A program made the translations under genes and the position numbers. From Pseudomonadota bacterium (GTDB taxonomy: Bacteria; Pseudomonadota; Alphaproteobacteria; Rickettsiales; UBA1997): 64,000 bases of DNA. The notes beneath the pieces are model-generated. The model had not been told where the DNA came from and searched no databases. It saw only the letters and a program-made list of their open reading frames with translations. The stretch's first letter is position 1; the number at the start of each line of letters is the position of its first letter. The stretch is taken from assembly GCA_018970485.1 (NCBI GenBank), contig JAGWWH010000001.1:7137-71136 (forward strand), read 5' to 3'. Shown in pieces: positions 17,120 through 19,700 of the stretch.

Positions 17120-17818
17120 TCAAACGGCGGCGTTGTTCACTTCATCACTTTTTTTCGCCACCCAAACCACTCTCTCGCTCACATCACAGAGCAACACCTC
17201 AAACCCATGCCTCTCTAACAAATCCCGATACTCCTCCTTCGAAAGCGACGAGTGATAAAGCATCTCCCCATTATTATCACTCCACACCTCGCCATCACTC
17301 GACCCCGAAGTAAAAGCCAAAATTCCACCCGCCAAAATATGCGCCGCAAAAGTTGCAAACATTGATCTTTGCTCGGCGCGCGTGAGATGAAAAAAACTAT
17401 CCCAAGCAAGGATGACGGCGAATTTTTTACCGAGATTTAAATCGCGCATATCGGCGACAAAAAAATTCCCCGCAAAATTTTCGACAGAATTTGCTGGAGG
17501 ATTTTGCTGAGGATTTTGCGCGGAATTTTTGCTAAAATTCTGACTAAAACTTTGCTTAAAATTCTGGGGAGAAAATTTTTTCTGGCAGAGCTCAATCATC
17601 TTCCAACTCCCATCAATCCCCGTCACCAAATACCCCCGCTCCATAAAAAACCTCGCCAACGGCTCACCCGCTCCACACCCCAAATCCAACACCTCCGACC
17701 CCGCAGAAGCCGCGCGCAGGATCAACTCAAGATATTCCTTCTCGACCAAATTCTTATCGCGAGCTTCATCAAACCACTCGGCGATTTTGTTGTAGGATTG
17801 GCAGGTGGGGGTAGGCAT
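17120..17818 (-). CDS. Class I SAM-dependent methyltransferase with tandem-repeat insertion
   Basis: VLDLGCGAG, VTGIDGS, ADMR, AWDSFFHL, LYHSSL. Confidence 0.88.
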   Translation of the reverse strand: MPTPTCQSYNKIAEWFDEARDKNLVEKEYLELILRAASAGSEVLDLGCGAGEPLARFFMERGYLVTGIDGSWKMIELCQKKFSPQNFKQSFSQNFSKNSAQNPQQNPPANSVENFAGNFFVADMRDLNLGKKFAVILAWDSFFHLTRAEQRSMFATFAAHILAGGILAFTSGSSDGEVWSDNNGEMLYHSSLSKEEYRDLLERHGFEVLLCDVSERVVWVAKKSDEVNNAAV

Positions 17819-17838
17819 TTGGTGCGTGATTCGAGTGT

Positions 17839-17887
17839 TATTTTTGCGGAGGCGGGGAATTAAAATTAGTATACTGTCCCCGGATTA
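17839..17887. repeat. 43-bp direct repeat copy 1 (17839-17881) including a Y1-transposase end motif that runs to 17887
   Basis: TATTTTTGCGGAGGCGGGGAATTAAAATTAGTATACTGTCCCC identical at 18645-18687; continues GGATTA. Confidence 0.95.
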
Positions 17888-17909
17888 CGGATTATAAGGA
17901 TTATCAAAT

Positions 17910-18515
17910 CTACAGCTCCTCAATACTAAACTCGCTATACCCCTCAAAATAATAACTCACATCAATCCCTTTCATAAAAATTTCGCGATCATTGACTTTA
18001 TCCGTCAGTGCTTTGCCAAGAAGATATTTGATTTCGATATCTTTAACAGTGCTACGCTCCATTGCCATCAGATAATCTTCCTTATCAACCATATTCCAAT
18101 CAATCACCTGCTTTAATTCTTTTTTTAGCATCAAATCTAGCCATATTCTAGTAGCTCTACCATTACCTTCGCGGAAGGGATGAGCGATGTTCATTTCTAC
18201 ATATTTTTCGATGATCTTATCGAAATTACTTTGCGGCATTTTGCTGATGTTTTGCAGTGACTGCTCAAGATACATCAGCGGCGCAAAACGAAAATTCCCC
18301 TTCGCAATATTCACATCACGCAACTTTCCAGCGAAGTCGTAAATCTCGCCAAATAAGTAAGCATGAATTTGCGTAAGCCCCGCAAAAGTGCCGACTTCGA
18401 TTTGATTTATTTCTCCGCTTTCAAAGAGTTTTTTGGCTTTTTGTTTGCTAATTTTTTCTTCTGCTTTGTTTAACTCCAGCTGATTGGTGATGTTTAATTT
18501 ATTCGGCAGAATCAT
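17910..18515 (-). CDS. fic: Class III Fic protein adenylyltransferase (NmFic-like)
   Basis: [12 protein letters not shown] active-site motif; C-terminal SYYFEG inhibitory motif. Confidence 0.92.
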
Positions 18516-18590
18516 GTTTTTTGCCCCCTTATTCGGTTAGAAGTGATGGGAAGAAATTAGCATAGTTTTCACGGATTGTCTACGAAAGGT

Positions 18591-18852
18591 TGGGGAATTG
18601 GTATACTGTCCCCGGATTATTTGTCCCCGGATTATTTAGAGTACTATTTTTGCGGAGGCGGGGAATTAAAATTAGTATACTGTCCCCTCAATAATAATCC
18701 GGGGACGGTAAATAATCCGGGGACGGTATACCAATTCCCACCCTACTTGCTCTCCAAAAATAATCCGGGGACGGTATACCAATTCCCCACCAAAAATAAT
18801 CCGGGAAATAATCCGGGGACGGTATACCAATTCCCCACCCACTTGCTCTCCC
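18591..18852. repeat. Cluster of Y1-transposase end repeats (3 copies in one orientation, then 5 in the opposite)
   Basis: TGTCCCC(GGATTATT) at 18591-18621, 18622-18636, 18672-18687; AATAATCCGGG(GACGGTATACCAATT) at 18693, 18711, 18759, 18795, 18807. Confidence 0.95.
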
Positions 18853-18937
18853 AGAAAACATAAATTATCCACCGCCACTCGAAACTGATTCACTCATTCG
18901 TCAGTTTCAAATCACCCTAAACCCAATACCAAAAACC

Positions 18938-19597
18938 ATGGCCAGAATAGCAAGGGTAGTAATTCCCGGAGTCGCTCATCACATCACTCAAAGAGGGGTG
19001 CGCTCCATGAATATCTTCAACAGCCGAGAAGATAAAAAATCATATCTAAAAATATTGTCAGAGCTCTCTCTGCGCGAAGGCCTCAAAATTCACGCCTATT
19101 GTCTGATGGATAATCATGTTCATTTGCTAGTCACTCCACAAAAAGAAGACGGCCTCAGAAAAGCCATTGGAGAAACTCACAGATTATACACTCGCAGAAT
19201 GAACTTCCGGCAAAAAGTTCGCGGACATTTATTCCAAGAAAGATTTTTCTCCTGCCCGCTCGATGATGCTCATTCTGTCGCCGCCGCAAGATACATCGAA
19301 AGAAATCCAGTCAGAGCCAAGATGTACAAACAAGCCTGGAACTACGAATTCTCAAGCGCGAAATATCACGTAGGCGCAACAAAAACAGATCCACTATTAA
19401 CTGATGAAAAATGGCACCACAGCGCGAATGAGTGGAAGGAATTATTGCGAGAAGAGGCGAAGGAAATTGAGTTGATCAGAAGATCAACAAAAACCGGCCG
19501 ACCGTCGGGAAATGAAAAATTTATTAAGAATCTTGAGAAGGCGTCGGGAAGGGTGTTGGCGATTAAGAAGGCGGGAAGGCGTTCTAGAGGTGGGTGA
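18938..19597 (+). mobile_element. HUH Y1 tyrosine transposase (RAYT/TnpA-REP-like, IS200/IS605 superfamily)
   Basis: HHITQRG, YCLMDNHVHLL (HUH), GHLFQERF, YIERNPVRA (catalytic Tyr), YEFSS. Confidence 0.93.
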
Positions 19598-19605
19598 GGG
19601 AATTG

Positions 19606-19700
19606 AGAAATTGGTTACTGTCCCCGGATTATTCTTCCCCGGATTATTCGGTTACTGTCCCCGGATTATTCAGAAATTGGTTACTGTCCCCGGATTATTC
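19606..19700. repeat. Right-end repeats of the Y1 transposase (4 nested copies)
   Basis: (AGAAATTGGTTACTG)TCCCCGGATTATTC at 19606-19634, 19636-19649, 19650-19671, 19672-19700; inverted relative to the left copies. Confidence 0.95.

Follow-up and report, generated by a model that had tools for sequence, protein, structure and literature searches.

Introduction

According to the survey of Quentin et al., as its main text presents it (PMC6006769), the largest group of class 2 (TnpAREP-type) Y1 transposases is subclass 2.1, which corresponds to Group 1 of the RAYT classification (Bertels et al. 2017, PMC5581495), is found in approximately 15% of the strains surveyed, and is given no role there. 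The same text describes subclass 2.1 as lacking repetitive extragenic palindromic (REP) sequences, gives the consensus of its flanking inverted repeats as GGGG[AT][CG]A[CG], and places in it 20 of the 26 TIRYT proteins of Di Nocera et al. 2013. The unit of gene plus repeats was named TIRtron by Di Nocera, De Gregorio, and Rocco, whose main text reports that the copies of the terminal inverted repeat (TIR) are single, dimeric, or grouped in some genomes (PMC3733652). For TnpAREP of E. coli, a specific nuclease activity on its own repeats is described in the main text of PMC6006769. Here, a TIRYT gene, its repeats, and the accessory genes beside them are analyzed in a 64,000-nucleotide stretch of DNA (the window) from a bacterium of the Rickettsiales lineage UBA1997 (GCA_018970485.1, contig JAGWWH010000001.1). 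It is probable that the locus is a TIRtron within a 4.7-kb accessory island, whose enzyme spawns miniature and cargo-carrying derivatives, and that no integron-like platform is involved.

The genome under study (G000; 1.58 Mb, 54 contigs, 40.7% G+C) contains the window on contig C51. Comparisons were made among 44 genomes of the genus, G000 included. The relatives are all species-level representatives, with Dxs proteins that share 76-92% amino-acid identity.

Results

A Y1 transposase gene flanked by iterated inverted repeats

The 219-residue Y1 HUH transposase (TIRYT) is encoded on the plus strand at 18938-19597 and is recognized by Pfam PF01797 Y1_Tnp (E 7.6e-14). Its motifs NHVH (residues 59-62), FQ (99-100), YIERNP (119-124), and SS (139-140) are the key motifs given for subclass 2.1 in Table 1 of PMC6006769, the main text of which also equates this subclass with the Bertels group. 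In an alignment of nine sequences, N59, H60, H62, and the SS pair are invariant. The C-terminal part carries the invariant S139/S140 and helices predicted at residues 163-203, and yields no Pfam helix-turn-helix or Bac_DnaA_C match at E≤0.001. The AlphaFold model (pLDDT 85.6) has its best fold match in the PDB with TnpAREP (PDB ID: 4er8; E 1e-8, TM 0.70 on the target). When a profile of nine relatives is compared with the PDB sequences, the best solved relative is again this E. coli protein (E 2.3e-5); a single-sequence search of the PDB sequences with the transposase gave no match.

Both flanks of the gene are occupied by iterated inverted repeats of ~26 nt with cores of GGGGACAG or GGGGACGG, as is also the case in the orthologues, and the GGGGWSAS consensus fits these cores. 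The left array (18693-18840, plus strand) contains three full L-type copies at 18710-18739, 18758-18789, and 18806-18840 and two partial copies at 18693-18710 and 18794-18808. The right array (19607-19699, plus strand) contains three full R-type copies at 19607-19633, 19644-19670, and 19673-19699, all of which are a one-base-deletion variant, and a half copy at 19634-19648. A preliminary description of this locus had proposed a Y1 transposase with inverted ends of ~25 bp, preceded by five L copies and followed by four R copies. The inverted ends are borne out and repeats are present at both sides, but two of the five L copies are partial and one of the four R copies is a half copy. The Y1 subgroup to which the description had pointed, with GGGGAC-type inverted repeats in place of REP hairpins, is the one published as TIRYT/TIRtron, as the main texts of PMC3733652 and PMC6006769 make clear.

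The repeats are strongly concentrated at this locus. Matches to the 12-mer core TAATCCGGGGAC were counted at ≤2 mismatches across the window, with 100 dinucleotide shuffles as background. The window contains 13 matches, 12 of which fall within 17876-19697. The shuffles average 2.04 matches and peak at 6, and none of the 100 attains 13. Genome-wide, the exact 12-mer is found 15 times, including 10 times at the locus, and its reversed control is absent. As single-stranded DNA, a lone repeat shows no fold (z +1.3 and +1.4), but pairs of repeats form strong folds: the segment 18588-18737, which holds R and L copies, has a folding energy of −46.5 kcal/mol (z −10.5), and an 81-nt repeat dimer from a relative has a z of −11.0. 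The R-type repeats within 18595-18636 and the L copies within 18693-18737 are thus predicted to pair as a long single-strand hairpin.

Two related element types were considered and rejected. A canonical RAYT/TnpAREP is disfavored by the NCBIfam model NF047646 (REP_Tyr_transpos), which the protein matches with 63.6 bits, below the cutoff of 80, and by the absence of a hairpin in the lone repeat. An IS200/IS605 element is disfavored by a tyrosine motif that ends in NP, a single-copy gene, and ends that are inverted repeats. Against a canonical RAYT, too, the best 16-mers flanking the transposase gene have only 4-5 occurrences in the genome, unlike abundant REPs. Judged by its sequence, the classification is settled: the locus is a TIRtron, in which a TIRYT gene of TnpAY1 subclass 2.1 / RAYT Group 1 stands between GGGGWSAS-type inverted repeats.

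A comparable organization is seen at the loci of relatives, where a usable inverted repeat with a GGG-type core (GGGG(A/T)C) was found at 50 of 79 genome loci and 51 of 80 metagenome loci; at the remaining loci the flanks are too short or no repeat exceeds the threshold. More than two copies are present at 24 of the flanked genome loci and 23 of the flanked metagenome loci, with further copies more than 450 nt away at 15 and 7, respectively. At a typical locus, ~45-55 nt separate the left copy from the start codon, and the right copy follows the stop by 0-10 nt. The transposase gene is single copy in G000, and five other genomes of the genus contain one close copy each. Distant Y1 paralogues are also present in the genus (G017:C3:175082-175558, G014:C23, G007:C2, and G012:C130), with 32-37% identity and frames of 217-345 residues. 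The G017 paralogue is located ~3.6 kb upstream of dxs.

Repeat copies beside fic and a methyltransferase gene

Two minus-strand genes precede the transposase gene. The first, at 17120-17818, encodes an S-adenosylmethionine (SAM)-dependent methyltransferase with Pfam SAM-methyltransferase domains. The second, fic, at 17910-18515, encodes a class III NmFic-type adenylyltransferase (Pfam Fic; NCBIfam NmFic-type equivalog, 314 bits with a cutoff of 230). The fic gene is bracketed by a 52-nt direct repeat of 94% identity (17830-17881 and 18636-18687), the last 43 nt of which are identical, at a spacing of 806 bp. The first copy, within 17830-17889, comes with a complete R-type TIR (17863-17889) and occupies the gap that separates the end of fic from the beginning of the methyltransferase gene; the TIR precedes the methyltransferase start by 45 nt. 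In the second copy (18636-18687), the R-type TIR (18669-18687) is cut right after GTCCCC. A further R-type TIR (18595-18621) and a half copy (18623-18634) are found 80 nt upstream of the fic start, and there is no repeat on the far side of the methyltransferase gene. Read on the minus strand, the order is L copies, fic, L copy, and methyltransferase, such that an L-type copy precedes each start by 45-80 nt, in a manner similar to that of the transposase gene. The identical 43-bp direct repeats 806 bp apart around fic, and the additional R motifs just upstream of fic and the methyltransferase gene, had both been reported in the preliminary description and are confirmed here.

Two independent breaks occur right after GTCCCC, namely the truncated copy at 18669-18687 and the point at which G000:C33 and G006:C40 diverge, and half copies also start at the GTCCCC block. 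These features are only a hint that this block could be a cleavage or recombination point.

Methyltransferase homologues are found in three of the 44 genomes, and no convincing repeat is present near those of G059 and G052. The methyltransferase gene includes a low-complexity insert at 17437-17600 (approximately residues 88-117) that is made of short repeats and contains an inverted repeat at 17461-17530; the G059 and G052 homologues align only on both sides of this insert.

A metagenome-assembled cluster of repeats could be an assembly artefact, since repeats break assemblies, and the G019 and G003 orthologues of the transposase gene indeed lie at contig ends. Contigs from three public runs, all of a single sample from which the window may derive, were aligned over 16800-20600. 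These contigs cover 16800-17868, 17839-18674, and 18810-19972 without differences. As contigs span the fic unit with both of its repeats, this unit is not peculiar to one assembly, although the sample may be the source. The sole discordant joint, which links 17101 to 18590 in one contig and has 25 nt on one side, and loose contig ends at 17068-17107 and 18595 correspond to other copies of dispersed repeats. Given this agreement between separate contigs and the presence of the same architecture in other genomes, the probability of an artefact is negligible.

The TIRtron occupies a different locus in each genome that carries it

Close orthologues of the transposase (68-77% identity) are present in six of the 44 genomes, counting G000, and all are at different loci; the neighbor genes of the orthologues map to other contigs of G000. 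In pairwise comparisons (G019 with G004 and G021 with G059), the nucleotide homology of the TIRtron stops at the repeats, as expected of a discrete mobile unit. The TIRtron is therefore a discrete repeat-gene-repeat unit that is patchily distributed in the genus and whose locus differs from genome to genome.

The junction at which it resides in G000 leads to a similar picture. The dxs gene is present in 44 of 44 genomes, and the DNA past it was compared in 20. In G020, G043, G055, and G009, whose dxs is 90-91% identical, argD directly follows dxs, with the two stops ~85 nt apart and nothing between them; in a fifth close relative, G006, synteny breaks after dxs. Because of this short spacing in four close relatives, the window is taken as carrying, not lacking, extra DNA here: it holds a lineage-specific 4.7-kb insertion between the dxs and argD stops (17008-21716). 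This island contains a palindrome, the methyltransferase gene, fic, the TIRtron, an ankyrin-repeat gene, and 1.2 kb without a long open reading frame (ORF).

These data bear on the proposal, made in the preliminary description, that a stationary recombinase acts as an integron-like platform that captures single-gene cassettes beside itself. Such a platform would account for the co-orientation of fic and the methyltransferase gene, each with a repeat upstream and each transcribed away from the transposase gene. It would also account for the G019 and G059 loci, where the genes downstream of the TIRtron are in common and the small ORFs in between differ, one of them encoding a HicB antitoxin. However, the enzyme is not stationary, as the orthologues in the five other genomes are all elsewhere, and orthologous transposases were not found at dxs-argD, where the junction is empty in four of the five closest relatives. 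In addition, repeat arrays occur far from any transposase gene (L160 and L161), these repeats also delimit the transposase gene, and the only recombinase at the locus is the HUH Y1 protein, with neither an integrase-type enzyme nor a distinct attI-like site. A stationary platform is thus highly improbable.

Solo, dimeric, and grouped repeats across the genus

Exact copies of the 13-mer core are found in 17 of the 44 genomes, with 1-13 clustered copies in each and only two matches in total for the reversed control. The exact-motif count is zero in the five closest relatives. One of these, G006, still contains a copy with one mismatch where its sequence is orthologous to G000:C33; as this copy was missed, exact counts understate the repeat family. 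At this site (L149, G000:C33:5582-8594), positions 263-1513 include an esterase segment that is 95% identical to G006:C40, with flanks of 83-91% identity. The high-identity stretch ends inside the TIR copy, which in G006 has the one core mismatch.

Solo copies, dimers of 55-81 nt that fold as hairpins, and copies at module edges all occur without a transposase gene. Dimers are present in G007, G021, G004, and G050. A unit resembling a miniature inverted-repeat transposable element (MITE) is found in G021:C11, where an 81-nt repeat-spacer-repeat has three copies that are identical over 81 nt. These three dimers occupy three consecutive intergenic gaps around a 330-residue DUF2806 gene and a 117-residue gene, and no transposase gene is present within the 12 kb examined.

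Repeats at the edges of accessory genes

The gene families adjacent to repeats are of the toxin/antitoxin and phage types (Fic, HipA, HicB, KilA-N, and GNAT). The most informative comparisons involve hipBA. In G014:C1 and G047:C26, an L copy, hipB, and hipA are in common; the alignment starts at the repeat and the genes beyond it differ. In an unrelated module, the 3′ end of hipA, ~150 nt, and an R copy are common to G007:C4 and G012:C153, with a remnant in G021:C11, and the alignment stops after the repeat. As the homology ends at the outer edge of the repeat while the DNA beyond differs, the repeat appears to travel with the hipBA genes.

Repeats also delimit segments with several genes. In a 5-kb region of G007:C92, dimers and solo copies bound three segments: fic with metallophosphatase and DUF2971 genes, GNAT with KilA-N genes, and a 147-residue ORF. 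In the same region, 2.3 kb of cargo is enclosed by the two copies of a 55-nt direct repeat that contains a TIR. Beside the TIRtron of G021:C5, an additional R copy is found past three ORFs, and in G004 a 130-residue ORF separates the TIRtron from a dimer. In G000:C25, a repeat cluster and a KilA-N remnant constitute ~1 kb that is absent from G006.

In a further region (L162, G007:C58:25000-36000), positions 3788-10576 hold four paralogous genes of 219-261 residues that are 43-67% identical over their aligned parts. Each of the last three is preceded by a direct L-type TIR, and the one paralogue that was tested has no Pfam match. The paralogues adjoin a 1104-residue ORF, which is partly echoed by a 130-residue ORF in the array.

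Homologues of fic (the window gene and loci L115-L129) are present in 16 of the 44 genomes; their amino-acid identities are 56-90% overall and 75-90% among the 12 full-length matches. The gene neighborhoods differ at all 12 loci for which neighbors were mapped. A repeat or dimer lies 80-190 nt upstream of fic in three of the 16 genomes (G000, G007, and G021), even though the motif is rare, with 0-13 exact copies per genome. As a single gene, fic is unusually mobile in the genus.

Weighing cargo transport against selfish scatter

Based on these alignments, the idea of repeat-tagged cargo is a moderately supported hypothesis, and by analogy with related enzymes we infer that the transposase may mobilize the accessory genes. 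The principal rival holds that the repeats are REP- or MITE-like selfish sequences in variable intergenic DNA, and that the enzyme moves itself and dimers only, never genes. Proximity to accessory genes would then be incidental, because repeats and accessory genes both prefer islands, and the 43-52-nt direct repeats of fic would stem from ordinary homologous recombination or duplication between copies. The identity of the three G021:C11 dimers is what recent local hops would leave, and single, dimeric, and grouped TIR copies already appear in the main text of Di Nocera et al. (PMC3733652).

A number of observations weigh against the transport of genes by the enzyme, and several of them fit the selfish-repeat explanation. 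At 19 further loci, all repeat sites are intergenic and single or paired, like REP or MITE repeats. Eleven genomes have repeats without a close TIRYT gene, including G007 with 12 copies and no gene. No repeat was found at 13 of the 16 fic loci at ≤2 mismatches. The between-genome nucleotide homology of fic covers the ORF ± ~7 bp (17904-18525) and does not reach the repeat, and that of KilA-N covers the gene only. Each hipBA module has just one repeat-marked end. When a 35-nt repeat unit was aligned to the island edges (17000-17130 and 20520-21720), the scores were within the shuffle range, as they were for 17130-17800 and 19705-20520. A 2.27-kb insert in G004 extends 420 and 310 nt past its outermost repeats, and this overshoot rules out the insert as a clean repeat-to-repeat unit. 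With edges that lie off the repeats, both the G000 island and the G004 insert are best described as larger islands that were brought in or eroded by something else. The public-run contigs give assembled order only and include no circle, empty site, or 806-bp deletion, although contigs cannot reveal rare forms. Finally, because every relative is a species-level representative, the order of events is not recoverable from these genomes; the best match in a search of metagenome contigs for close relatives was 58% identical, and no same-species pair was found.

Two points are nevertheless difficult to reconcile with selfish scatter. In two unrelated hipBA modules, the outer edge of the repeat is precisely where the between-genome homology breaks off. 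In addition, there are few sites per genome, so three consecutive filled gaps in G021 and adjacency to fic in three genomes would be unlikely by random scatter. Taken together, the selfish-repeat explanation is considered unlikely, yet a serious contender. The expectation of the preliminary description that copies punctuate single genes in relatives is upheld in part, by the copies at gene edges and the 81-nt dimers, and fails at the 13 fic homologues without a repeat and at the bare island edges.

Under the favored reading, in which the TIRtron gives rise to miniature and cargo-carrying derivatives, the TIRYT would nick single-stranded DNA at the GGGGAC/GTCCCC core or next to it and rejoin the ends, much like E. 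coli TnpAREP on REPs, and the repeat pairs could form hairpins of the kind that such enzymes prefer. Miniature (MITE-like) and cargo (mobile-insertion-cassette-like) derivatives would arise in this way and would tend to land by existing repeats. The nested cluster in the window could have been built so on the minus strand, from an L-type repeat with the methyltransferase gene, L-type repeats with fic, and the TIRtron. Like-oriented copies might serve as start and stop sites that release a segment of repeat plus gene, for example the 806-bp fic unit.

A more far-reaching possibility is that the TIRYT and the GGGGAC repeats constitute an HUH system that shuffles small selfish or defense genes via single-stranded circles rejoined at other repeats. 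If true, such shuffling would explain both the repeat-punctuated arrays and the presence of fic, hipBA, and KilA-N beside repeats at unrelated loci, and RAYT Group 1 / subclass 2.1 would gain a function. This possibility is doubtful.

Other features of the island

An ankyrin-repeat gene (Pfam ankyrin repeats) is located on the minus strand at 19813-20514. Between this gene and argD, the region 20515-21716 contains only short plus-strand ORFs of 41-83 residues and is possibly a decayed gene. Just past dxs, a palindrome at 17023-17106 has 32-nt arms that are 97% complementary and belongs to a separate dispersed repeat family. At ≤2 mismatches, a 24-nt stretch from the arm matches the genome at 60 sites, and many of the public-run contigs terminate inside the palindrome. 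Another palindromic, G+C-rich repeat with the core CCCGCGCAGGCGGGG is the top 16-mer family genome-wide, with ~40 copies that are often beside TIR copies (for example, at G000:C25:59100-59130 and C4:8520-8600). A promoter and terminator scan of 16900-20000 gave nothing above shuffles.

Discussion

The element analyzed here belongs to a class that is on record but has received little study, and only two works in the literature searched use the name TIRYT or TIRtron. What seems new, judged from alignments and against the main texts of PMC3733652 and PMC6006769, is the comparative evidence that accessory modules, largely of the toxin-antitoxin type, end exactly at TIR copies. The genus offers a small and tractable case, in which the repeats are rare enough for each copy to be read in context. 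Should the enzyme move the modules, single accessory genes would have a new means of spreading that relies on the chemistry of single-stranded DNA. Otherwise, the locus is a typical representative of an element class already described. Among the literature matches listed, no report ties RAYT/TnpAREP to cargo, passenger, or toxin-antitoxin genes. The text of one preprint, as far as it was available, describes TnpAREP genes co-located with prochlorosin genes, for which its authors later saw no firm causal link.

Several known systems share individual features with this locus. Integrons likewise have short recombination-site-like repeats between small, unrelated genes that are often of the toxin-antitoxin type. 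In contrast to integrons, there is no tyrosine-recombinase integrase, fixed platform, or attI/attC distinction here, and the recombinase gene is itself mobile and located inside the same repeats. The HUH chemistry on single-stranded DNA is familiar from IS200/IS605 and IS91/ISCR elements, and ISCR elements capture neighbor genes by missing their terminator, albeit with enzymes of a different HUH family. Relative to IS200/IS605, the transposase has Y-x3-NP rather than Y-x3-Q, and the locus lacks subterminal hairpins and multicopy identical elements.

The REPtron of E. coli, with its REP-BIME and REPIN sequences, is more similar. Its TnpAREP is the best profile and fold match. Both systems also have one copy of the enzyme gene, flanked on either side by iterated cognate repeats, and the dimers here fold into hairpins as REPINs do. 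The differences are that the lone repeat here forms no hairpin, that there is no GTAG tag, and that the gene moves between loci.

The resemblance to TIRtrons is closest. It comprises the NHVH, FQ, and Y-x3-NP motifs, the C-terminal tail, GGGGWSAS inverted repeats without GTAG hairpins, a low copy number, and repeats that also occur as singles, dimers, and groups. Relative to TIRtrons as the main texts of the published reports describe them, the copies in this genus additionally stand at the ends of accessory modules (fic, hipBA, KilA-N, and others) and separate the genes of short arrays. For the putative derivatives, the closest concepts are MITEs and mobile insertion cassettes, which, as far as the source consulted covers them, lack a transposase but retain the ends of an autonomous element, and may or may not contain passenger genes. 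One such cassette, MIC231 of Bacillus cereus (Chen et al. 1999, as cited in PMC6199540), is described in that source as relying on a DDE transposase, two clear ends, and target duplications, whereas the elements of this genus are associated with an HUH Y1 enzyme and include several modules with a single repeat-marked end.

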